Below are positions 7,283-46,394 of a stretch of 64,000 nt of DNA, in pieces (the stretch's first letter is position 1; the number at the start of each line of letters is the position of its first letter). The position numbers and the translations under genes are program-made. The DNA comes from a virus (Duplodnaviria > Heunggongvirae > Uroviricota > Caudoviricetes): the IMG/VR virus record IMGVR_UViG_3300031087_000514. One strand, written 5' to 3'. Below the pieces are notes generated by a model. It made no database searches and was not told where the DNA came from. It was given only the letters and a program-made list of their open reading frames with translations.

Positions 7283-7742
7283 ACTCAGTGCGAGTTGTGC
7301 TTTCTTTCCACACATTGAAAGGACTTACAGCATTTTCAATTCTCAGATGCTCAGCAACATCTCCAGCTGCAAGCTTCTCGTAGAACGCTGCGTCATCAAA
7401 GCCAGCATCAGCTGCATCATGGCGGTCAGCAGCGAACACAATGCGGTCAACACGTGACCACAATGCAGCGCCTAAGCACATGGGACATGGCTCACAGGAA
7501 GAGTACAGAATGCATCCTTCCAGACTAAACGTTTCCAACTGACGGCATGCTTCACGAATAGTATTCACTTCTGCATGCGCAGTCGGGTCATTCGTTGTCG
7601 TAACCGAATTACCGCAAGCGATTACTTTGCCAGACGGAGTGACAATAACTGCTCCGAACGGCCCACCATTACCTGAATAGACGTTATCCATTGCGATACG
7701 AATAGCAAGCTGGATGTAGTAACCATCGTAGTCGTCATTCAT
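7278..7742 (-). CDS. CDA-fold nucleoside/nucleotide deaminase (TadA/guanine deaminase-like)
   Basis: HAE ... PCxMC zinc-binding motifs; start ATG overlaps the ligase stop as ATGAATGA (alternative in-frame ATG at 7766). Confidence 0.65.
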   Translation of the reverse strand: MNDDYDGYYIQLAIRIAMDNVYSGNGGPFGAVIVTPSGKVIACGNSVTTTNDPTAHAEVNTIREACRQLETFSLEGCILYSSCEPCPMCLGAALWSRVDRIVFAADRHDAADAGFDDAAFYEKLAAGDVAEHLRIENAVSPFNVWKESTTRTEY

Positions 7743-8865
7743 TGTCATCACTCTCCACTTTGCCATTCAGGTTCCAGAAAGGCTTTTCAAACTCGGGCTG
7801 GATAAGCTTCCAGATGCTGTCAGAAATCTTCTTCTCAGAAGACTCATTGTAGTGACCACCGCTATGACGGCTGAACAGCATACCTACAAGCTTCTTATCC
7901 TGCTGCTGCACTGCAAAAGCATAGTCCTTCTGAGTGAAGTCATCAGGAAGAGAAGTAATTACGCTGTTATACGTGTTCTCTACTTCCTCACGCAGAGCAG
8001 CGAACTCTGCCAGAAGGTTGTCACGGGTGCGCTCAACGAAGTCAATGAACTCCTCAGGAAGGTCCTTCAACCAGCTGTCAAAGTCGTTACCACTGACAAG
8101 CATCTCCCAGATACGACGTGAAGATGCGCCAGTGATGATGCGATGAAGCTGAACGTAGTCGGCCTGCTTAATCTTCACACGAGTGTCAGTGTTCAGGAAG
8201 TGCACAACCAGACCCTCAGCGTTCTCACGCGGAGTTGCAGCAAGCGCCTCAGCAAGGTTCGTGTACTGGAACTGCTCAACCTTGTTCCACTTCCACTCAT
8301 CAATCTGAGATGCAGGCTCGCTGATACCAGTCTCAATGTTTACACGGGCAATCAGGATAAGGTCATCCATCTCACCATAGTTCAGCACAATACGGTTGGT
8401 CGGGTAGATAATCTCCCAAATGTACGTGTAGCCCTCAGCAGGCTCCCACTGACCGTCATACAGCTCCAAGTAACGCGCTGTTGCATGCTGAGCCTGCTCA
8501 GAAGCAAAGGAACCACGAGTGGAGATGTTCAGCGTGCCATCAGGAGTGCGGTAAGAGATACCCATGCTACCGTCAGCCTTATCGGAGACAACAGCAGGGC
8601 CAGTCAGAAGAGCCTGGTCAACATCAGGCTCGTTGTGGTTGAAGAACTTACCCAGAGGACGGGAAACAATTTCCTTTGTCTCAGCGTCAACAATAAGACC
8701 ACGTGCTGCCAAAGTTGCAGGGTTCCAAGCGCGCTCAAACTGAGCGACCTGTGAGTAGTCGTAAATCTCCAACGGCAGAGTAGGGTGTACCTGCTTATTG
8801 ATGTGCTTTGCTGCGAATGCTGCATCCCACATTTCCTTTGGAGCAATGTCATAGATAGTTGACAT
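7735..8865 (-). CDS. RNA ligase (nucleotidyltransferase superfamily)
   Basis: Motif I KADGS, downstream EGhVhK-like motifs; paralog of 18503..19741. Confidence 0.7.
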   Translation of the reverse strand: MSTIYDIAPKEMWDAAFAAKHINKQVHPTLPLEIYDYSQVAQFERAWNPATLAARGLIVDAETKEIVSRPLGKFFNHNEPDVDQALLTGPAVVSDKADGSMGISYRTPDGTLNISTRGSFASEQAQHATARYLELYDGQWEPAEGYTYIWEIIYPTNRIVLNYGEMDDLILIARVNIETGISEPASQIDEWKWNKVEQFQYTNLAEALAATPRENAEGLVVHFLNTDTRVKIKQADYVQLHRIITGASSRRIWEMLVSGNDFDSWLKDLPEEFIDFVERTRDNLLAEFAALREEVENTYNSVITSLPDDFTQKDYAFAVQQQDKKLVGMLFSRHSGGHYNESSEKKISDSIWKLIQPEFEKPFWNLNGKVESDDNE

Positions 8866-9915: not shown

Positions 9916-9946
9916 AGTTGAGCTGAGTCCACTCAACTATTTTTCG
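9916..9946 (+). terminator. weak rho-independent terminator
   Basis: 7-bp stem agttgag/ctcaact followed by atttttcg. Confidence 0.5.
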
Positions 9947-10014
9947 TCAAAATGACCTCTATTGAAAAAATGGTGTATGCTGTCATCATAAGTTCAACGA
10001 AAGGGTAACATAAA

Positions 10015-11868
10015 ATGGCTCGTACAATTGGTATCGACCTTGGAACCACAAACTCAGCTGCTGCAATCCTTGAAGGTGGAGAAGCGACAGTCATTGCAAA
10101 CGCGGAAGGTGTTCGCACCACCCCATCCATCGTCGCATTCACAAAAGATGGTGATACGCTCGTCGGTGAAACCGCAAAACGTCAGGCAGTCACCAACGTT
10201 GACCGCACCATCCGCTCTGTAAAGCGCCACATGGGTACCACTTGGTCAACCACCATTGAGGGCAAGAAGTACACTGCTCAGGAAATCTCTGCCCGTATCC
10301 TCATGAAGCTCAAAAAGGATGCAGAGACCTACCTTGGTGAAGATGTTGACTCCGCTGTCATCACCGTTCCTGCCTACTTCAATGACGCTGAGCGTCAGGC
10401 AACCAAAGAAGCTGGCGAGATTGCTGGACTGAAAGTTCTCCGTATTGTCAATGAGCCTACCGCCGCAGCAATTGCGTACGGTCTTGACAAGGTAAAAGAA
10501 TCCGAAACTGTTCTCATCTACGACCTCGGTGGTGGAACCTTCGACGTGTCCCTTCTTGACATTGACAAAGACTCTGATGATGGCTTCGCAACCATTGAGG
10601 TACGCGCAACCGCAGGTGATAACCGACTCGGCGGCGATGACTGGGACAAGGCCCTGGTTGATTACATCAACGAGCAGTTCAAGGCTGCTTCTAGTGTTGA
10701 CATCACAGGTGACAAGATTGCTCAGCAGCGTATCCGCGAGGGTGCAGAGCAGGCTAAGAAAGAGCTTTCCAGCGGTAGCAGCACAAGCGTTCAGCTCCCG
10801 TATATCTCTCTCACCTCTGAGGGTCCTCTGAACTTGGATGTTACTATTACCCGTGCGAAGTTTGAAGAGTTGACCAAACCTCTCCTTGACCGCACTAAGA
10901 AGCCATTTGAGCAGGTTCTTGCCGATGCTGGTATTACCACAAGTGACATTGCGAACGTTATTCTTGTTGGTGGTTCAACTCGTATGCCTGCTGTTGTTGA
11001 CCTGGTGAAGTCTTTGACAGGCAAGCAGCCCTCCCAGAATGTGAACCCTGATGAGGTTGTTGCTCTCGGTGCAGCTGTTCAGGCTGGTGTTGTGACTGGT
11101 GAGCGTAAGGATATCCTCCTGATTGACGTTACCCCGCTGTCTCTTGGTTTGGAGACTGCGGGTGGAGTTATGACGAAGCTCATTGAGCGGAACACTGCCA
11201 TTCCTACTAAGCGTAGTGAGACCTTCACTACTGCGGTTGATAACCAGCCGTCTGTTGCTGTTCAGGTCTTCCAGGGTGAGCGTGAGTTTACTCGTGATAA
11301 CAAGAAGCTCGGTCAGTTTGAGTTGACAGGTATCGCTCCTGCTCCTCGTGGCCTTCCTCAGATCGAGGTAACTTTCGACATTGACGCAAACGGTATCGTT
11401 CACGTCTCTGCGAAGGATAAGGGTACTGGCCGCGAGCAGAAGATTACCATCACAGGTGGTTCTTCCCTTTCCCAGGCTGACATCGACCGTATGGTCCGTG
11501 ACGCTGAGGAGCACGCTGCTGAGGACAAGGCTAAGCGTGAGTCCCAGGACCTTCGCAACCAGGCTGAGCAGTTGACCTACTCTGCTGAGAAGGTTCTTGT
11601 GGACTACGCTGACCAGGTTCCTGCTGATGTCAAAGAGGAAGTCACTAACGACATCAACGCTTTGAAGAAGGCTCTAAATGAGGGTTCTGATGATGACGTG
11701 AAAGCTGCTGTGGAGCGTTTGAACCAGTCTCAGCAGAAGGTTGGTCAAAGCGTCTACGGTAACCAGGCACAGGCTGACACAGCCCCTTCTGAGGAAGCTA
11801 ACCAGGCTCCTGCTGGTGGTAGCGAGGATGAAGATGTTGTTGACGCAGAAATTGTTGACGAGGACTAA
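10015..11868 (+). CDS. dnaK: molecular chaperone DnaK (Hsp70)
   Basis: [29 protein letters not shown] Hsp70 signatures; full length 617 aa. Confidence 0.95.
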
Positions 11869-11877
11869 AACTATATA

Positions 11878-11930
11878 AATGAGAAGCGGGACAAACTATT
11901 CGGTTTGTCCCGCTTCTCATTTGCATTTTA
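11878..11930. terminator. bidirectional terminator
   Basis: 19-bp stem aatgagaagcgggacaaac/tttgtcccgcttctcatt. Confidence 0.8.
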
Positions 11931-15552: not shown

Positions 15553-16455
15553 ATGTCTCAGCATATTAAAGTGTTACGCGGTGTTCAGGGTTCTGGTAAA
15601 TCAACCGAAGCCTTGAAGTGGGTTCGTCAGGACCCTCTGAATCGCGCCCGCGTAAACCGAGATGACATCCGTTTGACTAACTTCGGCTCATATGACCTTC
15701 CTCAGGAGTTGGAGTATGCTGTTACGAAGATTGAACATCAGCTGATTCGTACACTGTTGAAGGCGAAGAAGAGCGTTGTTGTTGACAACGTGAACTTGCG
15801 TGCAAAGTACGTGAAAGAGTACTTGCTGATTGCTGATGAGTTCAATGTTCCTGTTCTGTATCAGGATTTTCCTGTGGAGCTGGAAGTTGCATTAGCTCGT
15901 AATGCTGCTCGTGAGCGTAAGGTGCCTGAGGATGTTATTGTCAAGACTCATAAGCGATACATCCAGAGCGGTAAGTTCCCTGAGTTCCCTCAGCTGAGTT
16001 ACGACATGTCTGGGCTGTACGTTCCTGATGAGACCCTTCCGAAGGCTATCCTGTTGGATGTTGATGGCACGGCTATGAAGATTGGCAAGCACCGTGGCCC
16101 TTATGATTTCGATAAGGTCATTGATGATGAGCCGAACTTCCCTGTCATTACCACTGTGCAGTCCCTTGTCGCACATGAAGGCTATAAGGTGATTGTCATG
16201 TCAGGCCGTGATGAGATTTGCAAGCAGGATACTCTGTTTTCTTTGGAAGTTGCAGGGGTTCCTGTTGATGAAATCTACATGCGTCCTCAGGGGGACCGCC
16301 GCCCTGATACTGTTATCAAGCGTGAGTTGTTTGATGCGAATGTTCGTAACCGTTTTAACGTGTTGTTCGCACTTGATGACAGAGATGTTGTGATTGACAT
16401 GTATAGAAAAGACTTGGGCTTGACTGTTTTTCAGGTTGATTACGGGAACTTCTAA
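15553..16455 (+). CDS. pnk: polynucleotide 5'-kinase/3'-phosphatase (T4 Pnkp-like)
   Basis: P-loop GVQGSGKST kinase domain plus DVDGT HAD-phosphatase motif; AAGGA RBS. Confidence 0.8.
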   Translation: MSQHIKVLRGVQGSGKSTEALKWVRQDPLNRARVNRDDIRLTNFGSYDLPQELEYAVTKIEHQLIRTLLKAKKSVVVDNVNLRAKYVKEYLLIADEFNVPVLYQDFPVELEVALARNAARERKVPEDVIVKTHKRYIQSGKFPEFPQLSYDMSGLYVPDETLPKAILLDVDGTAMKIGKHRGPYDFDKVIDDEPNFPVITTVQSLVAHEGYKVIVMSGRDEICKQDTLFSLEVAGVPVDEIYMRPQGDRRPDTVIKRELFDANVRNRFNVLFALDDRDVVIDMYRKDLGLTVFQVDYGNF

Positions 16456-18502: not shown

Positions 18503-19741
18503 ATGACTACCACTCGTAAACCACCTTATTTGCATGCTGACGGTTCAAATTGTTGGACAAAGCATTGCTCCCGCCGCACCAAGGAAAGCAATGATCGTGC
18601 TTCCTTCTTCAAGCAGGTTGAAAAGACCCCAGCTGCGAAGCTTCCTACCAACCTTCCTCCACTGTCAGCGTTCCAGAAAGCTCACGCTGAGGGCCGTATT
18701 GAGAAGTCTGAACACCCAAATTACCCTTACGTGACCTACAAATACGCGCGTACTACGCAGTTCGCTTCTGACTGGGATGATGTCACACTTGCTTCTCGTG
18801 GAATCATCTTTAACAAGGAAACCGGAGAAGTTGTTGCACGTCCATTTGCAAAGTTCTTCAACTACAATGAACCTTCCGTGCCTACTGATAAACTTCATGG
18901 TCGTGTGAGCGTCACTGACAAACTTGATGGTTCATTAGGTATTGGTTACGTTGATGAGGACGGTAAGTTCAACATTGCTACTTCTGGTAGCTTTATCTCT
19001 GAACAGTCTAAACATGCTACTCGTATATACCAAGAGAAGTATGAAGGTAAGTGGAATCCAAATCCAAACATGACATACATGTGGGAAATCATTTACCCTG
19101 AGAACCGTGTTGTTGTCAACTATGGCGATGAGGACGACTTGCACCTTATCGGTGCTGTCAATAAGCGCACTGGTAAGAGCGTCCCATTAGGTGATATCAA
19201 AGAGTGGAAGTGGAAGCGTGCAGAAGAGTACAAGAATATTTCTTCTCTTGACTCTGTACTTGCCACTCCTGACCGTGAGAACCGTGAAGGTTTCATTGTC
19301 CACTACATTGATACTGACACTCGCGTAAAGTACAAGCATGAGCAGTACTTGAACATTCACCGTGTTGCTACTGGTGTTACTTCTAAGACTATCTGGCGCA
19401 AGATGTCTTTGGGTGAAGATATGGACAGCTGGAAGAGTGGAATTCCTGAGGAGTTCACTGACTTCATTTCTGAACGTCAGAACAAAATTCGCGCAAACTA
19501 CGATAATGAAGTCAGTAAAGTTGTTGCTGACCACGCGAAGTTCAAAGCTTCTATGCCTGCTTCATATGAACGTAAAGACTTCGCTGTTACATTGAAGAAT
19601 TCTTCTGTAGTTCCAGCTGAGAATAAACCATTCATTATGAATTATGAATTCAACGGTAAAGTAGCAACAAACGAGGTGCAAGCTCGTAAAATTTGGGAGC
19701 GCATCAAGCCTACCGATGAGGATACTTTCTGGAACATGTAA
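18503..19741 (+). CDS. RNA ligase paralog with about 60-aa N-terminal extension
   Basis: Motif I KLDGS; homologous to 7735..8865 from residue about 60; GTTAG box at 18488 (N10 spacing) supports the 18503 ATG. Confidence 0.7.
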   Translation: MTTTRKPPYLHADGSNCWTKHCSRRTKESNDRASFFKQVEKTPAAKLPTNLPPLSAFQKAHAEGRIEKSEHPNYPYVTYKYARTTQFASDWDDVTLASRGIIFNKETGEVVARPFAKFFNYNEPSVPTDKLHGRVSVTDKLDGSLGIGYVDEDGKFNIATSGSFISEQSKHATRIYQEKYEGKWNPNPNMTYMWEIIYPENRVVVNYGDEDDLHLIGAVNKRTGKSVPLGDIKEWKWKRAEEYKNISSLDSVLATPDRENREGFIVHYIDTDTRVKYKHEQYLNIHRVATGVTSKTIWRKMSLGEDMDSWKSGIPEEFTDFISERQNKIRANYDNEVSKVVADHAKFKASMPASYERKDFAVTLKNSSVVPAENKPFIMNYEFNGKVATNEVQARKIWERIKPTDEDTFWNM

Positions 19742-20133: not shown

Positions 20134-21087
20134 ATGAAAGTATACAACGACACAGTTGTAATGACTGACTCCCTGATCCGCATGCTTGATAGATATCGCG
20201 CTGAACGAGGTTTTAACGCCTCAGAATGGGTTGAGCGTAAAGTTGCTCTCATCAACGCTTATTTCACGCAGAGTGGCCTGTCAGGGGCTGTTGTAGGGGT
20301 CTCAGGAGGTATTGACTCCGCTGTTGCTCTTTCTCTTGTCGTGAAAGCATCACAGGTGGAAGACAGTCCAATCAAGAAGATTGTTCCGATTCTTCTCCCC
20401 GCATTTTCTTACACAGGAGCTACCCGTCAGAACGAAGCTACAAACCGAGCAGAAAGCCTGTGCACAAAACTTGGACTCGAAGCAGTCATCTTCCATCAGC
20501 TCACACCAATGGCTGAAATGATGAATGCAGAATTAGAGAACGTTTTGGGAATTCGGGCAACCCCTTGGGCAAAAGGCCAGTTAGTTGCATACACCCGAAC
20601 CCCAATCCTGTACAGCACCTGCTCCATTCTCACGGACGCAGGATATCCAGCCTTAGTCATTGGAACTACAAATCTGTCAGAAGGTGGATACTTAGGTTAT
20701 GTCGGTAAAGCCGCTGATGGCATGGTTGACTTGCAGGTAGTGAGTGACTTGTACAAATCAGAAGTGTACCAAGTTGCGGAACTGCTAGAAGTACCAAACC
20801 TCATTATGAAAGCAACACCAACAGGAGACATGTTTGACGGTCGGGATGACGAAACAGTGTTCGGAGCTTCCTACGACTTCGTGGAACTCTACCACCTCTG
20901 GCTGCAAAATGGCTCCGACCCTGAACTTCTGAAGGATGAAACATTCGCAGCAGGAGCGGCGAACCTTGAAAAGATGCACGCTTACAACGGTCATAAATAT
21001 CTGTACGGTACACCATCAGTTCATTTGGATATACTTCGTGCAGACATCCCTGGTGGTTGGAATAACAAAGCTTGGAGCGCTGAATAA
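20134..21087 (+). CDS. NadE-like PP-loop amidotransferase/NAD+ synthetase family protein
   Basis: SGGIDS PP-loop motif; AAAGGA RBS for the 20134 ATG; first gene of a 3-gene overlapping operon. Confidence 0.7.
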   Translation: MKVYNDTVVMTDSLIRMLDRYRAERGFNASEWVERKVALINAYFTQSGLSGAVVGVSGGIDSAVALSLVVKASQVEDSPIKKIVPILLPAFSYTGATRQNEATNRAESLCTKLGLEAVIFHQLTPMAEMMNAELENVLGIRATPWAKGQLVAYTRTPILYSTCSILTDAGYPALVIGTTNLSEGGYLGYVGKAADGMVDLQVVSDLYKSEVYQVAELLEVPNLIMKATPTGDMFDGRDDETVFGASYDFVELYHLWLQNGSDPELLKDETFAAGAANLEKMHAYNGHKYLYGTPSVHLDILRADIPGGWNNKAWSAE

Positions 21088-24717: not shown

Positions 24718-25974
24718 ATGGTTTCAAAACCAGAACGGGGTCGATACTTGACCCTAGAAGATGTCCGTGTTTCATATAAGCACAAAGATGACACCATCCA
24801 TCTCACCTCAGCTGACCCAGATATTCCAAACGGGTCATTCTACATTACGTTGAATCGTGATACTCCAACCGAAGAAGCTCTCAGAGAACTACTGATTGAG
24901 CGCGGTTATATCAAAGAGAATGATGCTGTCTCTAAGCCAGAAGACACTCAACTGGATTCTATTTACTCATACCGCCCACGGAACCCATTACAGGATTTGC
25001 TTGTGGATAGTTTAGTAGGGAGAGGTAACGTCAACTTCCCTCGTTATGTCCATATTTCAGGACAGCCAGGATGTGGAAAAACATTTTTAGCGGCTCAAAC
25101 CGTGGAAGAAGCTTCTGCTATGGGAATCAATACATATATCATCTCTGCAGATGTACAAGCTTACCTTCCCAAAGTTCAAGGTACTTGTACAACTATAAAT
25201 TTACCAGATTTACCAGAAGGCTCTCTGAACCCTTTTGCTTTAGGTTTGAATGTAGATGAGATACTGAATTTTTTGATTAACTTTATTCTACCTTTGAATA
25301 TTGGGAATATTGATACGCCAGATGGTGCTTATTTTTACGCACAGTATCGTGATCTACTACGAAAAAGTATTGGTCTTGTAGCTACTTACGAGGAGCCTTC
25401 TTTAGATAAAATAGTAGAAAATTTAGAGTCAAAAGTTACATTTGATAGTAAAGTTCAGCTACAAACTTCATTAAAAAGGCTAAAAAAGACAGAATTCGGA
25501 CATCTTCTTTTTGGTACATCACTATACGTAAAAGATATGATTGTAGATAAACACATAATAATTGATACTGGGGCTTTGCCTTATGTTAGTGTGTCACTTT
25601 TGCCTGATACATACACCGTTGAACAATTGGCAGCTGTCCTTATCAAGAAAATAATTGTCAATATTCTCAATAAGAAAATAAACAATTCAAGTCGTCCCAG
25701 TTTGTTCATTATTGAAGAGTCGATAGATTTAGCTGAGGAGATGATTCCTATAATTCGTTCAAAAAATATTACGCTTATTACAATAAACCAAGAACCTATT
25801 ACCCAGTCTAATCTCCGTTTAAGTTCTTCTGCAAATCAGATGATTGGTCGTTCGTCCGACCGAAGCACCCAAGATGCAGTAGATTTGCCCTTAGACAAAC
25901 TGAGCACAGGAGAATTCTTTTGGTACGACATCAACACAGGGAACACTGAGTTTTATAAATCTGCTATTGATTAA
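24718..25974 (+). CDS. P-loop NTPase (Walker A GQPGCGKT, Walker B LFIIEES)
   Basis: AAGGAAAA RBS; C-terminal two thirds strikingly AT-rich. Confidence 0.6.
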   Translation: MVSKPERGRYLTLEDVRVSYKHKDDTIHLTSADPDIPNGSFYITLNRDTPTEEALRELLIERGYIKENDAVSKPEDTQLDSIYSYRPRNPLQDLLVDSLVGRGNVNFPRYVHISGQPGCGKTFLAAQTVEEASAMGINTYIISADVQAYLPKVQGTCTTINLPDLPEGSLNPFALGLNVDEILNFLINFILPLNIGNIDTPDGAYFYAQYRDLLRKSIGLVATYEEPSLDKIVENLESKVTFDSKVQLQTSLKRLKKTEFGHLLFGTSLYVKDMIVDKHIIIDTGALPYVSVSLLPDTYTVEQLAAVLIKKIIVNILNKKINNSSRPSLFIIEESIDLAEEMIPIIRSKNITLITINQEPITQSNLRLSSSANQMIGRSSDRSTQDAVDLPLDKLSTGEFFWYDINTGNTEFYKSAID

Positions 25975-27498: not shown

Positions 27499-28344
27499 AT
27501 GACCACTTTACAGAAGCACATCATTGAAACCCTCGGAGTGAAAGCGAAAGTCAACCCAGAGGAAGAGTTCCGCACTCGTGTAGACTTCCTCAAAGCTTTC
27601 ACTAAAAATGCAGGAACACGTGGATTCGTCCTCGGGATCAGTGGAGGGCAGGATAGTGCTCTGGCTGGATACGTTGCTCAGACAGCTGTTCGTGAGCTCC
27701 GTGATGAAACAGGCAAAGACTATGAATTCCTTGCCCTGCTCCTTCCATACGGTACACAGCGGGACGGGGATGAAGCAGTAACCATCGCAAAAGACTTCAT
27801 CAAAGCCGACCAGGTAATTGAATACAACATCAAAGACACTGTAGATGCTTTCGCAAACACCTTCAACACTATTGCAGATGCTGACCCTGCAAACGGTGAC
27901 AACCTTGCCGACTACCACAAAGGTAACGTCAAAGCACGTGTCCGCGCCATCACACAGTACGCATATGCTGGACAGCGCCAGCTTCTTGTTGTGGGGACCG
28001 ACCATGCAGCAGAAGCGGTCTCGGGATTTTTCACGAAGTTCGGGGACGGTGCTGCTGATGTTTTGCCTCTTAGTGGTTTAAATAAACGCCAGGGTAAAGA
28101 AGTTCTCCGTTTCTTGGGTGCTCCTGAATTTGTCATCACCAAAGCCCCTACTGCTGACCTTTTGGACACTAACGCAGGTCAGGCTGATGAGACTGAACTT
28201 GGCATCACCTACGATGTGCTGGATGACTACCTTGAAGGCAAGACTGTCGCAGAAGCTGCTCAGCAGAAGATTGAACTTCGTTACCTGGTGACTGAACACA
28301 AGCGTCAGCAGCCTGTTGACCCTTTTGCTGACTGGTGGAAGTAA
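27499..28344 (+). CDS. nadE: NH3-dependent NAD+ synthetase
   Basis: Canonical 281-aa NadE with SGGQDS PP-loop; AGGAAGGAA RBS. Confidence 0.85.
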
Positions 28345-29889: not shown

Positions 29890-30046
29890 AGTATTTATCT
29901 TATCGGAAAAAAGAAGCTCAGCGAAGAAACAAAACGTTGAGAACATTTGTTTACATAAATGACACACTCGGAAGCAACTGAGTTTGAGTTTCATCACAGA
30001 TGTGTGTTATGATAGGTCAGAACCACGTAGAAAGAAGTAAAGGTTT

Positions 30047-32545
30047 ATGAATAGCCGTTTTACGGATTTAGCTTTGCAAATCGTCCGCCGCGCTGTTGCC
30101 ATTGCAACTGATGCTGGAGCCTCACAGGCAGGAAGTGAGTATTTCCTCTTAGCGTTGGTTGAGAATGACAACACTAAGGCAAAATTTAACAACATTGGTG
30201 TTACAGCTGACAATCTTTCTCGTTTGATTGCCACCTCTTTTCCACCTTCCTCAGCTGATCGTTTCAGTAAAGAAGGGAAGAGTTTCACTGATGAAGCAAA
30301 AAACATCATTGAGAAAGCTTTCCACACTGCTTTGAATGTTGCCACCCAGAAGAAGGTCTCCACTGATGTGTTGATTCTTTCTATTCTTCGGGAAGCGAAC
30401 TCCCACGCTCACCGTTGCCTTGAAATGCTTGCAGTTGACATCCAGCAGTTGGAAACCATCGTCCTTGCCAGCATCAGCTCTTCCAATGGCGAAGAGCGCA
30501 CTTCCGGTGCAGTATCTGAACCTGACATGGCTATGTCTGGTGCGCGTGCGCAGAATGCTAACAGCAAGACTGCTATGTTGGAACAGTTCGCTACGAACCT
30601 TTCCGCTCTTGCTCGTGATGGGAAACTTGACCCTGTAATTGGTCGTTCAAAAGAAATTGAGCGCACCTTGCAGGTTCTTTCACGCCGCACCAAGAACAAT
30701 CCTATTCTGGTTGGTGAGCCAGGTGTTGGTAAGACTGCTATTATTGAAGGTCTTGCACAGACTCTGATTGACTCTGACGTTATCCCTGACTCCATCAAGG
30801 GCCGTGATGTTTGGTCCTTGGACCTGGCTGGCATCCTCGCTGGAACAAAATACCGTGGTGACTTTGAGCAGCGGTTGAAGAAGCTTGTCAAAGAGATTCA
30901 GACTGCAAATGTCATCGTCTTCATTGACGAGATTCACTCCCTCATCACTGCTGGTGGTGGGGAAGGTTCACTGAACGCTGCCAACATCCTCAAGCCTGTA
31001 CTGGCTCGTGGTGAAATGCAGACAATTGGTGCAACCACGTATGATGAGTTCCGCAAGCATTTTGAGAAAGATGCTGCAATGGCACGCCGTTTCCAGCAGG
31101 TTGATGTGGTTGAGCCTACTGTTCCTGATGCTATTCAGATTCTCAAAGGTCTACGTGGAGAGTATGAGAAGCACCACAAGATTACTCTGACAGACAAAGC
31201 TATTGAAGCTGCTGTCACGCTGTCTTCTCGTTACATCAATGACCGTTTCCTTCCTGACAAGGCTATTGACTTGATGGATGAAGCTGGGGCGAAAGCAAAG
31301 ATTTCACGTCTGACTACTCCTGCTCCGTTGAAAGCTCTGGAAGTTGACCTTCTTGACCTTATCGCTAAGAAGGAGAAAGCTATTGAAGCTGAGGATTTCC
31401 TTGCTGCTGCTGACCTTCGCAATGAAGAGTCGAAGCTGAAGAAGGTTCTTGCTGAGGAAACTGATAAGCACCGCTCCTCCGATGACACAACAGTTGTTAC
31501 TGATGTTGACATTGCTGCTGTTTTGACTGCTGCAACAGGCATTCCTGTCACTCTTGTGCAGGATGAAAGCAAGCGTCTTGTTTCCATGGAAACAGAAATT
31601 GCTGCTCGTGTTGTTGGTCAGAAAGCTGCCATTCAGACAGTTGCTCGTAGTGTTCGTCGTCAGCGTGCAGGTCTGAAAGACCCGAACCGTCCAGCAGGTT
31701 CATTCATCTTTGCTGGTCCGACAGGTGTTGGTAAGACTGAGCTTGCGAAAGCTCTTGCCCAGTTCCTGTTCCAGGATGAGTCAGCTCTTATCTCACTTGA
31801 TATGAGTGAGTATGGCGAGAAGCACACAGTTTCCCGTCTGTTCGGTGCCCCTCCTGGATATGTTGGACATGAAGAAGGTGGACAGCTGACTGAGCGTGTT
31901 CGTCGTAAGCCGTACAGTGTTATCCTGTTTGATGAGATTGAAAAAGCTCACCCTGATGTATTCAACCCACTTTTGCAGGTTCTGGAAGAGGGCCGTTTGA
32001 CTGATGGGCAAGGCCGTGTTATTGACTTCAAGAACACCATCATCATCATGACAACAAACTTGGGTGCCAGTAAACTGGCATCAGGCCCAATGGGCTTCCA
32101 GGTGTTTGGCAACGCTGACGCTTCCTACGAAGCTATGAAGAACAAAGTCATGACTGAGTTGAAGCAAGAGTTCAAGCCTGAGTTCCTGAACCGCCTTGAC
32201 GATATGGTTGTCTTCCCTCACCTGACCGAAGAAGACCTCATCGAAATCATCGATGTGTTCATCGCTCGCCTCAATGTTCGCCTTGTGGATAACAACTTCA
32301 CTGTTGACCTTACACCTGCTGCGAAGAAATATGTCGTCAGTGTCGGATACGACCAGACATTGGGTGCGCGACCATTGCGTAGAGCAATGCAGCAGTTGGT
32401 TGAAGATGGTATCAGTGAAATGATGCTCTTCGGAACTGTTGAAAGCGGAGAAAATATTGTTGTTGATTACGTCAACGAAACTCTCACATTCAATGGGCGA
32501 AACAGGGATGAAATTACATTCCCTGCGGAGCCACTGGAAGCGTAA
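30047..32545 (+). CDS. clpC: Clp ATPase, ClpC/ClpB family (two Clp_N repeats, two AAA+ modules)
   Basis: [10 protein letters not shown] and [15 protein letters not shown] Walker A motifs, short middle domain, 832 aa. Confidence 0.9.
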
Positions 32546-32550
32546 AAGAT

Positions 32551-33123
32551 ATGAGCTTAGAAGCCGCAGTGCGTTCTTTGTTGCAGCATCATGACATACC
32601 AGAACAGGTAATCATGAAGCTTACAGCAGGGAACCCTGCGGCTTCTTTGCCGTATCACAACAATGAGCATAACTTCATGCTTGCCGTGAATGCTCATAGC
32701 ATTGGTGAGCAATTAGGTATGGATGACGACCTGTTGAAACACTTACTGGTTGCAGGTATGTTTCATGACTACAATCACACGGGAACAGCATTACCTGATT
32801 CCGTGAACATCCAAAAAGCATTACACTTCTTACATCAGAATAGTCAGGTGTTCGTAGAAGCAGGCTTGTCCGTTCCATTGCTGCAAGTCTTGATTCAAGC
32901 AACAGAGAACCCTCCCGCAGAAAACTATACACTGCCTGAGCAGGTTATGCGTGACGCTGATTTACTTGGCTGGTGTGACCAGGATACAGAAGAACTGATG
33001 CAAGGACTTGCAGAAGAGTTCGGTTCTCCTGTTACAGAACAATCGACCAGAGATTTTTTACAAAACGCTCACATTTATACTGAACCTGCACGCAAAAAAT
33101 TGAGGCTTGCGGGTTGGCTGTGA
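32551..33123 (+). CDS. HD-domain phosphohydrolase (class-I cyclic-nucleotide phosphodiesterase-like H...HD motifs)
   Basis: YHNNEHNFMLAVNAH ... GMFHDYNHTG. Confidence 0.55.
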   Translation: MSLEAAVRSLLQHHDIPEQVIMKLTAGNPAASLPYHNNEHNFMLAVNAHSIGEQLGMDDDLLKHLLVAGMFHDYNHTGTALPDSVNIQKALHFLHQNSQVFVEAGLSVPLLQVLIQATENPPAENYTLPEQVMRDADLLGWCDQDTEELMQGLAEEFGSPVTEQSTRDFLQNAHIYTEPARKKLRLAGWL

Positions 33124-33145: not shown

Positions 33146-33799
33146 ATGATGAAAGAAATTTATATCTCAGTAGACATTGAAAGCGACGGTCCGATTCCAG
33201 GACCTTACTCCATGACAGCCCTAGGCGCTGTTGTCGCAGGCTACAGGACTGACACTGGTGAAGTGGTCAAGCTTGACGTTACAATCCCTGAGAACCGATT
33301 CTACGCCGAAATCAAGCCTATTTCAGATGACTGGCAACCAGAGGCAATGAAAGTTGGCCTGTTTGCAGGCTTTGGTGCGGCTCAGGCGGAATTGGACACT
33401 GACGGCTCGCTCCGTCGTGCGTACATTTTGGAGCATGGACAGGATCCGAAGGTAGCGATGACAGCATTCGCTGAGTGGGTGGAAGAGAAGAAGAGTCAGT
33501 ACGAGTCTCGTAGTGCAGTCTTTGCAGCATACCCGCTTGGGTTTGACTGGATGTTTACTTACTGGTACTTGGTTGCTTTTGCACAGGTTCAGTCTCCGTT
33601 TGGATTCTCTAAGCACATTGACATCAAGACTTTGTTTGCAGAGAAGGCCGGACGGCTCATTCAGGGAGCCACAAAGCGGAACATGCCGAAGTCTCTGCAT
33701 TCTAAACTTCCTCATACTCATCTCGCTATCGATGACTCGGCAGAACAAGGTGAGCTGTTGATGAACATCTTTGCTTGGGAAGGCTCTGCCCACAAGTAA
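33146..33799 (+). CDS. DEDDh 3'-5' exonuclease (DnaQ/oligoribonuclease-like)
   Basis: SVDIESDGP, FDWMF, H..AIDD motifs. Confidence 0.65.
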   Translation: MMKEIYISVDIESDGPIPGPYSMTALGAVVAGYRTDTGEVVKLDVTIPENRFYAEIKPISDDWQPEAMKVGLFAGFGAAQAELDTDGSLRRAYILEHGQDPKVAMTAFAEWVEEKKSQYESRSAVFAAYPLGFDWMFTYWYLVAFAQVQSPFGFSKHIDIKTLFAEKAGRLIQGATKRNMPKSLHSKLPHTHLAIDDSAEQGELLMNIFAWEGSAHK

Positions 33800-36807: not shown

Positions 36808-37851
36808 ATGCCAAAATTAATCATCCTCAGAGGAATCCCTGCGTCAGGGAAATCAACATACGCTCAAAAATGGGTTATGGAAGACCCTGCAAACCGTGTC
36901 CGCATTAACCGCGATGATATTCGTGAAGCGCTCACAGGTGATGCAACAAACCATAGTCGTGAGAAAGAAGTAACACAGTACCAGGAAGCGCTCATTGAGC
37001 GTGCTTTGAAAGAAGGTAAAGATGTCGCTTCTGACAACACAAATTTGAACACCAAATTCTTACCTGATACGATCAAGAAAGCGCAAGCTGTCGGCGCTAC
37101 AGTTGAGCACAAAGACTTCCCTATTACAGTGGATGAAGCTCTTCGTCGTAATGCTGGACGTGAACGCAAAGTACCAGAAGATGTCATTCGCAGAATGTAC
37201 AAGAGTTTAGGCCCTAAGGGTGAGTTCCCAGTGTTCCCTGGCTCATACCCTACGAAACCTTTTACTGCGCCAAACAGCCGTAAGCCAGCTGTCTGCTTCG
37301 ACATGGACGGCACATTGAACGATGTGTCAGGTGTTCGTCACTTCATTGACCCTCAGCCAGGCGCTAAGAAGCGTTTCAAAGACTTTGACTCATTCCACCG
37401 CATGTCTGAGTTTGAACCAGCTCATGAAGCTGTTTTGCAGTTAGCTAAAGATGCTCATGAATCAGGCTATGCTGTCCTCATCACCACTGCTCGTAGCGAA
37501 CCATATCGTGAGACAACACAGAAGTGGTTGGATGACCATAACGTGCCATACGAGAACATTTTCATGCGCGGTGAGAAAGACTATCGTAAAGACTACGATG
37601 TCAAGAAGGACATGTTCACTGAAATTGACAAACACTATGATGTTGTTCGTTGTGTTGATGACAACCCACAGGCTATTCAAGCGTGGAAGGAAAACAACAT
37701 TGCGGTGACAACAGTGCCGTTCAACTATGACGGACGTGAAACTCCTGTCGTCATCAACAACCCATTCCGTTCGGGTGTATGCATCCGTTGCGGCAAACCA
37801 TTCAAAGGTGAAGGCACATTAGGTCCAACCTGCCGAACAAAAGCTGCGTAG
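36808..37851 (+). CDS. polynucleotide kinase/3'-phosphatase paralog with C-terminal Cys-rich tail
   Basis: GIPASGKST P-loop, CFDMDGT HAD motif, C-terminal CIRCGKPF...GPTC; GTTAG box 36794-36807. Confidence 0.8.
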   Translation: MPKLIILRGIPASGKSTYAQKWVMEDPANRVRINRDDIREALTGDATNHSREKEVTQYQEALIERALKEGKDVASDNTNLNTKFLPDTIKKAQAVGATVEHKDFPITVDEALRRNAGRERKVPEDVIRRMYKSLGPKGEFPVFPGSYPTKPFTAPNSRKPAVCFDMDGTLNDVSGVRHFIDPQPGAKKRFKDFDSFHRMSEFEPAHEAVLQLAKDAHESGYAVLITTARSEPYRETTQKWLDDHNVPYENIFMRGEKDYRKDYDVKKDMFTEIDKHYDVVRCVDDNPQAIQAWKENNIAVTTVPFNYDGRETPVVINNPFRSGVCIRCGKPFKGEGTLGPTCRTKAA

Positions 37852-39858: not shown

Positions 39859-41340
39859 TTAGGCAGTTGCAATGCGAGCACGAGTGATAACAGTCTGCTC
39901 ATCGCCATTGAATGTGTCCAAGTCTTTGATAGTTGCACTGGATACAGTAAGCATGTCGCCGGCTTTGAACTCTTTCTCTCCGCTTGCCCACCATTTAAGT
40001 TCTTTTCCTTCATCAGTGGTCATAATAAGGAGAGTCTTGTAGCTGTCTCCGACATTAGGGATGTATGTTGGGATGAGCTGAGCTCGCTTTACTGTTACTG
40101 GCACGTTTCTGAGCTTATCGCCAATTTGACCAACATAACCTTGGGCTCTTGGTCGACTTTCACGTTCCTGGCGAGCTTGCTGCTTTTTCGCAGCAGCAAT
40201 AACGGAAACAACGTAGCCAACATGTTTGTAAGAAACATACTCTTGTGAGAGAAGCGTCTTCATGTTACGACCGTAATCATTATCCGTGTCAAAATGAGTG
40301 GTCTCTATTACGGAAGTCGCCGCGGCCTCATGGTCTTCAAGGTTGATATCGTTGTAACGGTTGTTATTGTTGGATGAGAAGAAGAAACTTTTCACTTCGG
40401 AGGCAGTAGAGTCTTGGCCTGTTTCTCTTTCAAGCATACGGGAACGATACTTCTCACCATTGTCTGAAATGGCCAGAGCTGCGGCTACAACGGATTTTGT
40501 TGGCAGCATGCTGTCCTGGCCACCCCAACGACGTTCACCGCGGTCTAAGTAATCGTCACCTTCTTCTGGGTCATAGTTGAGCGCCCACAAAGCTTTCGGA
40601 CGAACTCCTGAAAATGACTCTAAGCAGTTAGAACCGACCTGCTTGTATTCACCTGTGTCTTTGTTGCGAAGCAGGTAAGTTGATGAACGTCTACGATTAC
40701 TTCCACAGTGGTCACATTCAAAATGTTCAGGGGCATAACCGTTGAGTTCCTGACCAGGAACAACACGGGTGAGCATGGCTCCATCTTCTGTTTTGTCTAC
40801 AGCAGCAACAAAATCCCATCCTCCAACATGAAGCTCGGGATAAGTAAGGCTCATACGAACCATGTTAAAACGGTGACCTTCGTTGTCTTCTTCAACGAAG
40901 TGTTCAACTTCATAGTCGAACCGCTCTTCAACTCCTGCGCGGGTCAGTTTTCTGTTCGCAATATCAATACGGTGAACTGCTTCATCTAGCCTGGAAGCAG
41001 GGAAAACTGAAACGCCTTCTACCTTCTCTTCCACTGAGGCACGTAAACGTTCGCCATCTTCTAACAGCTGCTGGTATTTCTCTTTCTCAGTCCAGTCGTT
41101 GGTCTCAGCAACTTTGTTAGTGAAGAACTCTTGACCACTGTCTGTGGCTGCGTACTCTACGGAGGCTTCTTTGAGTTTTTCTGATAGAGTGTAACGATCT
41201 TGGATGTCAGTGGTCTCTTCTAACTGGGAAGATAAAGCACGGAACTTCTCTTCAACGCGATCTAAGTAAGAAGCGTGTGTTGCACCATGGTAGCGGCAGG
41301 CAGCTTTATTGATTGCTCTGCATTCACGTGTAGTAGTCAT
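39859..41340 (-). CDS. large hypothetical protein with N-terminal C-x7-C-x2-H motif and internal CDHCGS zinc-finger-like cluster
   Basis: N-term MTTTRECRAINKAACRYHGATH; GTTAG box immediately 5' of the ATG (plus 41341-41354, minus strand). Confidence 0.55.
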   Translation of the reverse strand: MTTTRECRAINKAACRYHGATHASYLDRVEEKFRALSSQLEETTDIQDRYTLSEKLKEASVEYAATDSGQEFFTNKVAETNDWTEKEKYQQLLEDGERLRASVEEKVEGVSVFPASRLDEAVHRIDIANRKLTRAGVEERFDYEVEHFVEEDNEGHRFNMVRMSLTYPELHVGGWDFVAAVDKTEDGAMLTRVVPGQELNGYAPEHFECDHCGSNRRRSSTYLLRNKDTGEYKQVGSNCLESFSGVRPKALWALNYDPEEGDDYLDRGERRWGGQDSMLPTKSVVAAALAISDNGEKYRSRMLERETGQDSTASEVKSFFFSSNNNNRYNDINLEDHEAAATSVIETTHFDTDNDYGRNMKTLLSQEYVSYKHVGYVVSVIAAAKKQQARQERESRPRAQGYVGQIGDKLRNVPVTVKRAQLIPTYIPNVGDSYKTLLIMTTDEGKELKWWASGEKEFKAGDMLTVSSATIKDLDTFNGDEQTVITRARIATA

Positions 41341-44987: not shown

Positions 44988-46394
44988 ATGATTGCTAAGC
45001 TTATTAAATCGTCACGAGGTGCTATTGACCTGGCCTCTATACTCGTAGCGGTCATTATTGTTGGCCTTATTTCTGGTGTTGTTTCTGTTAGCGTCTTTGC
45101 TGTCATTCCATGGACTCATGATAACGCCGCTAAGACTCATCTTGGCTCTATCGCTGTAGCGCAAGCTTCTTACAAAGGAGCCTATGAAAAATACGGGGAC
45201 TATAAAGGATTAGTCAAAGAAGAGCTTCTTCCTGTACGAGAAAAAACTTGCTCAGTTACTTCAAACCAAGGTAGAACCTATACCTCAGCCACACAATCAC
45301 CTACAGGCAAAGTCTTCATCAATACGAATACTGTTTCTCAGCCATGGCAAGCAGCGGTCGGTGAAACTACCTGTTTAGGGACAGTGAAAGAAAACAACGA
45401 ATTAGAGCCACTGCCACCAGCTACTGAACCAACTCCTACGGTTCCAACGGTAACTCCGAAACCAGGTACGGAAAGCAGTTTTACACTGCGTTGCGATAAA
45501 ACAACTTCAATGCTTTTACCAACAGCATCAGTAAATGCATCAGCGCAATGGAGTGATGGTGTGGAACAGTCCGCGACAACGGGTTCGTTCAATCAACGAA
45601 CACTTGCCGCAGGCGTGACCTATAAAGTTACGATTACTGGGACGTTTGGGGTGCTGAGTATGCTTCCCCTGAATATTGACCAAAAGAATTGTGTTCGGTC
45701 GATGGATTTATGGGGTTCTGCCAGTGCTACTGTTGTAGCTGATTATGCTTTTGCCGGGGCTAATAATTTGACTTCTATCCCTCAGAACATTCCAGCAACA
45801 GTCACCTCAGTAGCGGGTATGTTCCAATCTAATAAGACATTCAATCAGGATTTGAGTACATGGGATACTGCAAACATCAAAAATATGAGCAATATGTTCA
45901 ATGACTCAATATACACGAAGTCATTGAATAGTTGGAACGTTTCTAATGCTACAAATCTCAGTTTTATGTTTGCAAGTTCCTCCTACAACCAACCATTAGA
46001 TAATTGGAAAACGGCTAATGTTCTTAGCATGGAGGGGATGTTCCAGAACAATCTTGTGTTCAATCAAAATATTTCCAGCTGGAATACCACAAATTTGACT
46101 TCCACTGCATCTATGTTTGCAGGAGCTAAACTGTTCAATCAGCCATTGAACACTTGGACCGTGAATAATGTTGTCAATATGAATAGCATGTTCAAAAATG
46201 CTACAAGCTTCAATCAGCCATTGAACAACTGGAATACATCTAAGGTGACAAACGTCAGTGGTATGTTCTTGAATGCCTCATCATTTAGTCAAAATCTTAG
46301 TGGATGGAAACTCCCTAATATTCTTGTATTCCTTGATTTTGCTCTGGGAAGTAAACTCAACATACTTCAATTACCAAAACTGCCAATCTTATAG
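44988..46394 (+). CDS. membrane-anchored surface protein with about 7 DUF285 (BspA-type) repeats
   Basis: N-terminal signal-anchor, Pro/Thr linker, repeated F-NQ-L--W-T-N---M--MF units. Confidence 0.65.
   Translation: MIAKLIKSSRGAIDLASILVAVIIVGLISGVVSVSVFAVIPWTHDNAAKTHLGSIAVAQASYKGAYEKYGDYKGLVKEELLPVREKTCSVTSNQGRTYTSATQSPTGKVFINTNTVSQPWQAAVGETTCLGTVKENNELEPLPPATEPTPTVPTVTPKPGTESSFTLRCDKTTSMLLPTASVNASAQWSDGVEQSATTGSFNQRTLAAGVTYKVTITGTFGVLSMLPLNIDQKNCVRSMDLWGSASATVVADYAFAGANNLTSIPQNIPATVTSVAGMFQSNKTFNQDLSTWDTANIKNMSNMFNDSIYTKSLNSWNVSNATNLSFMFASSSYNQPLDNWKTANVLSMEGMFQNNLVFNQNISSWNTTNLTSTASMFAGAKLFNQPLNTWTVNNVVNMNSMFKNATSFNQPLNNWNTSKVTNVSGMFLNASSFSQNLSGWKLPNILVFLDFALGSKLNILQLPKLPIL

Follow-up and report, generated by a model that had tools for sequence, protein, structure and literature searches.

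Chaperone genes of host type have been described from several groups of very large phages. Among moraphages, DnaK is encoded by 8 of 25 genomes, often together with DnaJ, and these DnaK proteins cluster with the predicted host lineage, with evidence of recent transfer described (PMC12619734). Clp ATPases have been noted in jumbo-phage surveys, are reported to be annotated more often than any other protein in huge phages of a glacier foreland (PMC11748809) and, as 'ClpA' (VOG02072), constitute a moraphage core gene (PMC12619734). Phages also supply co-chaperones that use host machines, examples being T4 gp31, which replaces GroES, and Rki, a J-domain protein of RB43 (PMC3486835). Here we report on a dnaK and a clpC gene carried by a 64,000-nucleotide stretch of IMG/VR virus record IMGVR_UViG_3300031087_000514 (Caudoviricetes), hereafter the window, which is part of a replicon of ~880 kb; this replicon and its relatives, a family of 0.64-0.88 Mb replicons, are referred to below as elements. 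The sequence read comprised ~77 kb of the ~880 kb (<10% of the replicon), namely the window and 13 kb of flanks, plus fetched stretches of related elements. The explanation we favour, by somewhat more than an even chance, is that dnaK and clpC are separately captured genes of Micrococcales/Microbacteriaceae type that have long been kept by giant phage-like replicons and whose products use host cofactors.

When 50,697 GenBank phage records were searched, 52 matched DnaK, and many of these look like host-DNA contigs under phage names, judging by their names and annotations. A preliminary description of the window had called phage-encoded Hsp70 rare, which is correct for phages at large and does not extend to phages >500 kb, where DnaK recurs (Lak megaphages and uncultured-phage records of 484-735 kb); three distinct published genomes >600 kb (four records, LR756501/LR756503, LR756502 and LR745206) carry DnaK together with a two-ring Clp ATPase. 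Like the DnaK proteins of huge phages (Lak, Al-Shayeb et al. 2020, moraphages), to which it is 43-51% identical by tblastn, the element DnaK is full-length, host-derived and located on a very large genome. It differs from them in belonging to a clade that represents an independent Micrococcales-type capture with a HAIR-like candidate operator kept, and from moraphage DnaK in being old and ameliorated rather than recently transferred and in having no DnaJ in the stretch seen. Clp ATPases were found on at least 448 IMG/VR contigs, with ClpP within 10 kb in 1 of 80 loci fetched, and the element ClpC resembles those of jumbo and huge phages in being a two-ring Hsp100 without adjacent ClpP. The best Clp relatives in IMG/VR do not exceed 51% identity, and in most of them the N-domain is missing, with matches beginning near residue 166, whereas the element ClpC is of full ClpC1 type (N-domain, short M-domain and ClpP loop) and belongs to a clade of its own, found on replicons measuring 0.64 to at least 0.82 Mb. 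With T4 gp31 and Rki, as here, one component of a multi-part chaperone system comes from the phage and the rest from the host; the division of labour is reversed, in that the component provided by the element is the central ATPase (DnaK, ClpC) and the cofactors would come from the host. Chaperone genes in huge phages are therefore already known, and the features that appear to be unreported are the HAIR-like operator and the combination of a remodelled ClpC N-domain with a retained ClpP loop.

The dnaK gene (10015-11868, + strand) was recovered as an exact open reading frame (ORF) and encodes, as previously described, a canonical Hsp70 of 617 aa, composed of a nucleotide-binding domain (aa 1-355), the linker ILLID (aa 367-371), a substrate-binding beta domain to aa ~480, a helical lid to aa ~581 and an acidic tail. 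Pfam HSP70 was matched end to end with E=2.5e-231, covering profile positions 2-598 of 599 and reaching residue 581, and the protein scored above both NCBIfam DnaK equivalog cut-offs (NF001413, 897.8 bits, cut-off 648; TIGR02350, 857.2 bits, cut-off 822.55). In an alignment of 21 element DnaKs, the equivalents of E. coli D8, T11, K70, E171, D194, T199 and D201 and the hydrophobic linker were kept in all 21. The residues R167, N170, T215, V218 and D393 (E. coli numbering), which we take from DnaK-DnaJ work to be candidate J-domain contacts, were likewise all conserved. Residue comparison identified no chaperone feature lost in the element protein and, judged by these residues, dnaK encodes a complete Hsp70 with intact catalytic residues. 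The clade is set apart by 44 substitutions at positions that are >=90% conserved in cellular relatives and fixed to another residue in the elements. A substrate-arch residue (E. coli M404, residue 382 here) is K in 100 of the 100 nearest cellular DnaKs and A in 21 of 21 element DnaKs, and because mutagenesis of the arch in E. coli alters peptide-binding specificity, altered client kinetics of the element DnaK are plausible.

A consensus scan predicted a promoter for dnaK (TTGAAA-16-CATCAT with TG upstream; 9962-9989, + strand), overlapping a conserved block, AAAATGGTGTA. This block and the Shine-Dalgarno-like GAAAGGGT downstream of it are invariant between the window and relatives of 80% identity, while the remaining dnaK spacer has diverged. 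Directly 3' of the gene, the terminator scan placed a bidirectional terminator with a 20-bp stem (11877-11922), for which reason dnaK is read as monocistronic.

In actinobacterial dnaK operons (Streptomyces, Mycobacterium), the operator of the HspR repressor is HAIR, with the consensus CTTGAGT-N7-ACTCAAG. An inverted repeat of the same family, GTTGAGC-N7-ACTCAAC (9917-9937), was found 98 nt 5' of the dnaK start and is a candidate operator for host HspR. The repeat has 3 mismatches to the consensus and is the sole site with <=3 mismatches in the window. HAIR-like repeats occupy -98 to -102 of dnaK in 4 of 5 sampled element lineages, the others being CCTGAGT-N7-ACTCAGG at -100 in L010 and L013 (2 mismatches, with differing spacers) and GTTGAGT-N7-GCTCAAC at -102 in L182. 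Within 216 kb of element DNA, only two sites with <=2 mismatches were found, and both lie 5' of dnaK. Among cellular relatives, a HAIR site (<=2 mismatches) precedes dnaK in 52 of 64 loci, and across these 64 loci the 350-nt stretches upstream of dnaK hold 76 sites against 12 in the other 1.37 Mb. The element position is similar to the cellular one (median -118, range about -185 to -57), and one cellular variant, CTTGAGC-CGAGTCG-ACTCAAC (L103), differs from the window repeat at 3 of 21 positions. Compared with the cellular HspR/HAIR operon, the element lacks grpE, dnaJ and hspR downstream and has one site, where cells often have a pair. The search returned no match to CIRCE, the HrcA operator.

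Several observations weigh against an operator at this position. The repeat is degenerate in the fifth lineage sampled (L181), the element repeats are 2-3 mismatches off the consensus, and the window repeat lies 5' of the predicted -35. In the window and in L010 and L013, the repeat is followed by a T-run and stands directly behind the stop of the upstream gene, so that it could be a plain terminator. A role as terminator only was considered and rejected: in L182, where no T-run follows and the upstream gene is divergent, the repeat is found at an unchanged distance, which argues that the repeat is retained for another reason, and the terminator scan did not score the window repeat as a terminator. 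On balance, we regard the chances as even that the repeat upstream of dnaK is a retained HspR operator.

The clpC gene (30047-32545, + strand), also an exact ORF, encodes a ClpC1-type class I Hsp100 unfoldase of 832 aa, in agreement with the two-ring, ClpC-type ATPase previously described. The protein comprises an N-domain (aa 1-145), a first ring (D1, aa 176-420), a short M-domain (aa 421-480), a second ring (D2, aa 481-722) and a D2-small domain (aa 723-810), and the Pfam families occur in the order Clp_N, AAA, AAA_lid_9, UVR, AAA_2 and ClpB_D2-small, with UVR (E=1.1e-4) at residues 437-466 in the M-domain. Walker A and Walker B motifs, pore loops, and arginine and sensor motifs are intact in both rings (D1: Walker A 223-230, Walker B 292-297, pore loop KYRG 268-271; D2: Walker A 557-564, Walker B 627-634, pore loop GYVG 604-607, and also GARPLRR), and the motor residues are invariant in 12 element-type homologues. 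The closest solved structures are the ClpC1 proteins of Streptomyces and M. tuberculosis (8xon, 8a8u), which align in one continuous stretch; ClpB structures align less well, their best single stretch being the C-terminal half (residues ~440-815). Both the ClpA and the ClpB model of NCBIfam scored below cut-off (ClpA 778 bits, cut-off 993; ClpB 874 bits, cut-off 1232), ClpB giving the highest raw score, and no ClpC-named equivalog was present among the NCBIfam matches listed (best 25 of 39).

ClpB is without a ClpP loop, and its long M-domain binds DnaK, with which proteins of ClpB type cooperate. In the element ClpC, alignment to ClpC1 located a ClpP-docking loop, P-M-G-F-Q (aa 681-685; 32087-32101, + strand), which aligns with LGF of Streptomyces ClpC1 and GPVGFQ of Microbacteriaceae ClpC1, and within the element clade neither G683 nor F684 varies. 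The domain order, motor motifs and docking loop are thus those of the ClpC1-ClpP1P2 system (8a8u, 8xon), from which the element differs in the low identity of the N-domain and M-domain, in the absence of a nearby clpP and in the linkage of clpC to an HD phosphohydrolase gene.

The N-domain of ClpC (30047-30481, + strand) has been remodelled. Identity to Microbacteriaceae ClpC1 is 65% in D1 and 74% in D2, 30-35% in the M-domain and 23% in the N-domain, whereas the N-domains of cellular ClpC1 proteins are 88-98% alike between genera. The GTEH repeat signatures of ClpC1 are replaced by GSEY and STDV, and Pfam Clp_N matches the first repeat only (E=8.8e-6). An AlphaFold2 model of the N-domain had a pLDDT of 84.5, and the top Foldseek matches to this model were ClpC/ClpC1 N-domains (target-normalised TM 0.75-0.88, 20-24% identity); by this model, the domain still folds as a ClpC N-domain with its sequence rewritten. 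In ClpC proteins, the N-domain selects substrates and adaptors.

A promoter is predicted by consensus scan 34 nt before clpC (TTGAGT-18-TATGAT with TG upstream; 29984-30013, + strand). An HD-domain phosphohydrolase of 190 aa (32551-33123, + strand; phrog_16069, E=7e-20), which also gave a sub-threshold match to PDEase_I (3',5'-cyclic-nucleotide phosphodiesterase), starts 6 nt past the clpC stop. The terminator scan found no convincing intrinsic terminator from clpC through the HD gene to the next gene (33146-33799), the only signal being a weak match to the consensus with a 5-bp stem inside the HD ORF (32626-32639), which occurs at chance frequency; clpC and the HD gene are probably co-transcribed, as predicted from this arrangement. 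The pair is kept in L099, a distant family member whose ClpC is 59% identical. The second gene after clpC (33146-33799) encodes a protein of 217 aa in which a DEDD-exonuclease-like DIESDG motif was seen by eye. A 1191-aa element-type ClpC on a 38.6-kb Logan contig (P0129) contains a 362-aa LAGLIDADG intein in the D1 Walker A motif (GEPGVGK|T).

The closest cellular relatives of both proteins are Micrococcales, mostly Microbacteriaceae. Identity to these relatives is 70.7-73.4% for DnaK and 52.5-54.1% for ClpC, and all are equidistant from the element proteins, for which reason no donor can be named more precisely; the cellular sets are ~89-90% alike among themselves. No cellular protein above 74% (DnaK) or 55% (ClpC) identity was found in the searches, and none of the GTDB species representatives has a DnaK >74% identical to that of the element. 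The 21 element DnaKs are monophyletic with respect to the 100 nearest cellular DnaKs (100 of 100 neighbour-joining bootstraps), as are 24 element ClpCs (40 of 40 replicates), and the clades are internally diverged down to 76% (DnaK) and 58% (ClpC) identity. Relatives of the window ClpC were found at 95, 75, 70, 68, 65 and 58-59% identity, on contigs of 788,683, 637,770 and 820,703 bp, making this clade deeper than that of DnaK. Gene order is conserved at both loci: relatives with 76-80% DnaK identity keep dCMP deaminase, T4 Rnl1, DnaK, RNase H, Exo_endo_phos, NucS and PNKP in this order, and relatives with 59-69% ClpC identity keep ClpC, HD, PNKP, YgjV and polyA polymerase (contigs of 412-820 kb and 638 kb).

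Third-position GC content (GC3) is 0.51 in dnaK and 0.45 in clpC, against 0.42 +/- 0.06 for window genes; the element has 45% GC, and cellular dnaK loci have a median of 69%. Between the dnaK genes of L010 and L013, 111 synonymous and 7 nonsynonymous differences were counted (omega 0.016), and omega between the window and distant relatives was 0.10-0.18, with dS saturated. The two genes are old, separate captures that have long been kept, are compositionally ameliorated and evolve under purifying selection, and the evidence supports their belonging to the element and not to a host fragment. An 884-kb contig of the Joint Genome Institute (JGI) with a 53%-identical ClpC, considered as a second, paralogous element copy, was rejected for its ordinary bacterial gene context. 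This contig (L017; JGI 3300031088 Ga0308157_10000015, 884,373 bp) is of Microbacteriaceae type with 69% GC, comes from the same JGI sample series as the element and represents a candidate host population, but its GC content is far above the 45% of the element.

No member of the DnaJ, GrpE or ClpP Pfam families was found among the genes called from about -9.4 kb to +67.7 kb, so that the absence of these genes, noted earlier for the window, holds for the 13 kb of flanks as well. Searches by tblastn with 94 host-type queries gave no match to grpE, dnaJ or hspR in element DNA (best E 0.007, inside dnaK; the positive control worked), E. coli ClpP gave no match in the element DNA read (best E 1.1), and a Pfam scan of small ORFs near dnaK detected no co-chaperone domain. 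Downstream of dnaK in 40 cellular loci, GrpE was found in 36, DnaJ in 30 and HspR in 28; the host order grpE-dnaJ-hspR is lost around the element dnaK. A phage that brings its own folding and unfolding machinery, as had been suggested, is not what was found in the ~77 kb, where only the core ATPases are encoded, their partners are not, and the system seen is not self-sufficient. Against the favoured explanation stands the fraction of the replicon covered, as dnaJ, grpE, clpP and hspR may sit elsewhere on it.

If dnaK and clpC were captured and kept as we propose, the two products would each draw on the host. DnaK, expressed as a single-gene unit from its own predicted promoter, would work with host DnaJ and GrpE, as the loss of grpE-dnaJ-hspR around the gene suggests. 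Host HspR would repress dnaK until unfolded protein titrates the DnaK pool, and DnaK supply would then rise once the ~1000 proteins of the element overload folding in the infected cell, serving a very large proteome and particle. ClpC would dock on host ClpP1P2 or compete with host ClpC1 for it, and the rewritten N-domain would steer unfolding or degradation to new clients.

The replicon was delimited using contigs that carry an identical DnaK at differing offsets and orientations in three independent assemblies: ENA ERZ27247389 k141_483817 (880,409 bp), ENA ERZ27247428 k141_538707 (880,603 bp), to which the window ends are identical, and JGI 3300031112 Ga0308156_1000013 (880,970 bp). The near-equal lengths with different start points are as expected of a complete replicon, circular or permuted; other contigs with 98-100% identical DnaK measure 828-883 kb. 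The window and its flanks encode three Alt/Mod-like ADP-ribosyltransferases, a PARP, two T4-type RNA ligases 1, two PNKPs, dCMP deaminase, RNase H, NucS, two NAD synthases, an NMNAT-like protein, an NlpC/P60 peptidase, a CCA/polyA polymerase, two N6/N4 methyltransferases, GyrB/GyrA, DnaG and an HNH homing endonuclease; a signal peptidase, a major facilitator superfamily (MFS) transporter and Wzy are also carried. About 60% of the genes read match no Pfam family, in contrast to a bacterial contig of that JGI sample series, whose annotation is nearly complete. The family phrog_2319, which is phage-only, has its best matches in actinobacteriophages. In a near-identity search of 24 kb against GenBank phages, the only match was one of 350 bp at 74%. 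No dispersed repeat or repeated promoter was found when searched for.

We consider it probable that the replicon is a phage. Four results weigh against virus status: no capsid, portal, terminase or tail gene was detected with PHROG and Pfam in the ~77 kb or in the loci of relatives, some 30 unannotated proteins included; an IMG/VR scan for close relatives with DnaK gave no match; the element GC content is far from the ~69% of its nearest cellular relatives, a large gap for a virus-host pair; and the size exceeds that of every published phage. The first, second and fourth would fit a giant plasmid-like or Borg-like extrachromosomal element of an actinobacterium, in which the chaperones would serve maintenance or host stress tolerance, and cell-like genes (gyrase, primase, signal peptidase, MFS transporter, Wzy) and the absence of tRNA genes from the window agree with it. 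We judge such an element unlikely, given a repertoire typical of large lytic phages (T4-type RNA ligases, PNKPs, ADP-ribosyltransferases, PARP, NAD salvage, dCMP deaminase, HNH, and an intein in a ClpC homologue), the actinophage affinity of phrog_2319, the share of genes without Pfam family, long co-directional gene arrays, and the absence of any relaxase, type IV secretion or partition gene from the sequence read. Some of the same cell-like genes, with DnaK, ClpC and transporters, would be housekeeping functions if the replicon belonged to an actinobacterial cell with a very reduced genome, and a size of 0.88 Mb is one that reduced bacteria can have. That reading is scarcely plausible for a replicon whose dnaK lacks the grpE-dnaJ-hspR operon typical of cellular relatives, most of whose genes are without Pfam family, unlike those of the bacterial contig from the same sample series, which encodes T4-type RNA repair, ADP-ribosyltransferases and homing endonucleases with no tRNA gene in 64 kb, and whose DnaK is >74% identical to none of the GTDB representatives. 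The largest published phage genome is BF3 (841,704 bp), a maximum of 841 kbp was still being cited in April 2026, and a literature search for an 880-kb phage returned unrelated papers only, as did one paper naming both huge phages and Microbacteriaceae prove unrelated; no publication was found for the sample identifiers. If a phage, the replicon of ~880 kb would set a size record.

Alternatives concerning the chaperone genes themselves were weighed against the same data. The preliminary description named recent host acquisition without expression during infection as the finding that would refute its reading, and the data contradict the acquisition half of this. The cellular, Micrococcales-type origin of both genes is clear, but we give next to no credence to their being recent acquisitions, or passenger DNA without a role for the element, because the clades are monophyletic and internally diverged, synteny extends across lineages, composition fits the element and not the 69%-GC relatives, selection is evident (omega 0.016-0.18), and the nearest cellular proteins are no closer than the limits given above. 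The preliminary description had also placed DnaK and the Clp ATPase together, and a joint DnaK-ClpB-type disaggregase is conceivable in that both genes occur on one element, as they do in the >600-kb phage records listed above, and in that the ClpB model of NCBIfam had the top raw score, albeit below cut-off. DnaK and ClpC are nevertheless not a coupled system of this type, because the Clp protein is ClpC-type, with a short M-domain of ClpC length and an invariant ClpP-docking loop, and the genes, separated by 18 kb, belong to different transcription units with their own promoters and terminators; the ClpB cut-off is missed widely and the best stretch aligned with ClpB covers only the C-terminal half, against the continuous alignment to ClpC1. 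A bichaperone of DnaK and ClpB was thus rejected, and joint action is very improbable. A role in counter-defence or host takeover, in which DnaK as HspR co-repressor would shut the host heat-shock regulon or blunt immune sensors dependent on DnaJ/DnaK, and ClpC would destroy defence proteins or stabilise antitoxins through competition for ClpP, is rather improbable as a separate explanation. In its favour, counter-defence roles of heat-shock proteins from phages have been proposed (PMC12619734), many nearby genes are of counter-defence type (RNA repair, NAD salvage, ADP-ribosyltransferases and PARP), ClpC combines conserved motors with a rewritten N-domain, and the HD phosphohydrolase with which clpC is probably co-transcribed matches cyclic-nucleotide phosphodiesterases weakly. 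Against it, all chaperone features of DnaK are kept, and the proposal overlaps with long-term retention of captured genes that use host cofactors instead of excluding it.

Further features of the element were recorded alongside the chaperone genes. Of 74 genes, 8 begin with an N-terminal Cys-x6-11-Cys-x1-3-His tag (e.g. MSTATVTKCSKPKGAYCRLHNPE), whereas among 575 interior windows of 32 aa the pattern occurs once (p about 1e-12). Tagged genes are located at 602, 1661, 34754, 39859-41340 (- strand), 42198, 48365 and 54702 and, in the flank, at about -7271 (L016 2128-2937), and less strict versions of the tag occur at 18503 and 60047. Enzymes carry it, namely three ADP-ribosyltransferases, a 5'-nucleotidase, an HD hydrolase, a CCA/polyA polymerase and a 1015-aa amidoligase, together with a phrog_2319 protein. 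The tag is modular, a match in metagenome L190 being limited to the tag region of the query, and could serve in targeting or packaging or form a zinc knuckle. A search for paralogues of the ADP-ribosyltransferases returned the same region in other samples and one relative of 725 kb (L188; JAAIGE0101188732.1, 725,246 bp, 38% GC), which has a tagged ADP-ribosyltransferase 46% identical to that at 602-1630; its presence on this low-GC contig suggests that the family of giant elements is broad.

Diverged paralogues are frequent in the sequence read, with identities of 41% between the T4-type RNA ligases 1 (7735-8865, - strand, and 18503-19741), 33% between the PNKPs (15553-16455 and 36808-37851), 27% between the NAD synthases (20134-21087 and 27499-28344), 48% between the N6/N4 methyltransferases (52789-53985 and ~66476-67672, the latter on L015) and 25-33% among the three ADP-ribosyltransferases. 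Two adjacent genes (44988-46394 and 46516-47637) encode proteins whose N-terminus is pilin-like (…SSRGAIDLASI, then a hydrophobic helix); DUF285 repeats are present in the first, which matches very large PHROG proteins of unknown function. The gene at 24718-25974 encodes a 418-aa P-loop NTPase with a sub-threshold match to AAA_10, and its GC content, the lowest in the window (0.378; GC3 0.30), suggests that it was inserted more recently. A 701-aa protein encoded about 1.6-3.7 kb before the window start (L016 5711-7816) combines many WHPTKNG…CPxC repeats (DUF4379) with an HNH/homing-endonuclease region (phrog_559, E=4e-76), and a 42%-identical relative of it lies near clpC in the distant family member L099 (4813-6495).

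Taken at its fullest, the picture is of an ~880 kb circular Micrococcales virus with a captured dnaK wired into the host HspR/HAIR loop and a ClpC whose rewritten N-domain commandeers host ClpP1P2, possibly on the Cys-Cys-His-tagged viral enzymes; as a whole, we hold this conjunction to be doubtful. Host-derived chaperone and Clp genes are recurrent yet functionally unexplained in the largest phages, and, given their age and their conservation in the family of 0.64-0.88 Mb replicons, the two genes are core equipment of very large genomes and not accidents. The replicon itself and its tagged enzymes are a larger surprise than the chaperone genes. The conserved operator-like repeat predicts that the viral dnaK is under the host heat-shock repressor and, if this is true, the virus would be tapping the host stress circuit to time its chaperone supply. 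Likewise, conserved motors and a conserved ClpP loop combined with a rewritten recognition domain predict a hybrid viral-host protease with new targets.

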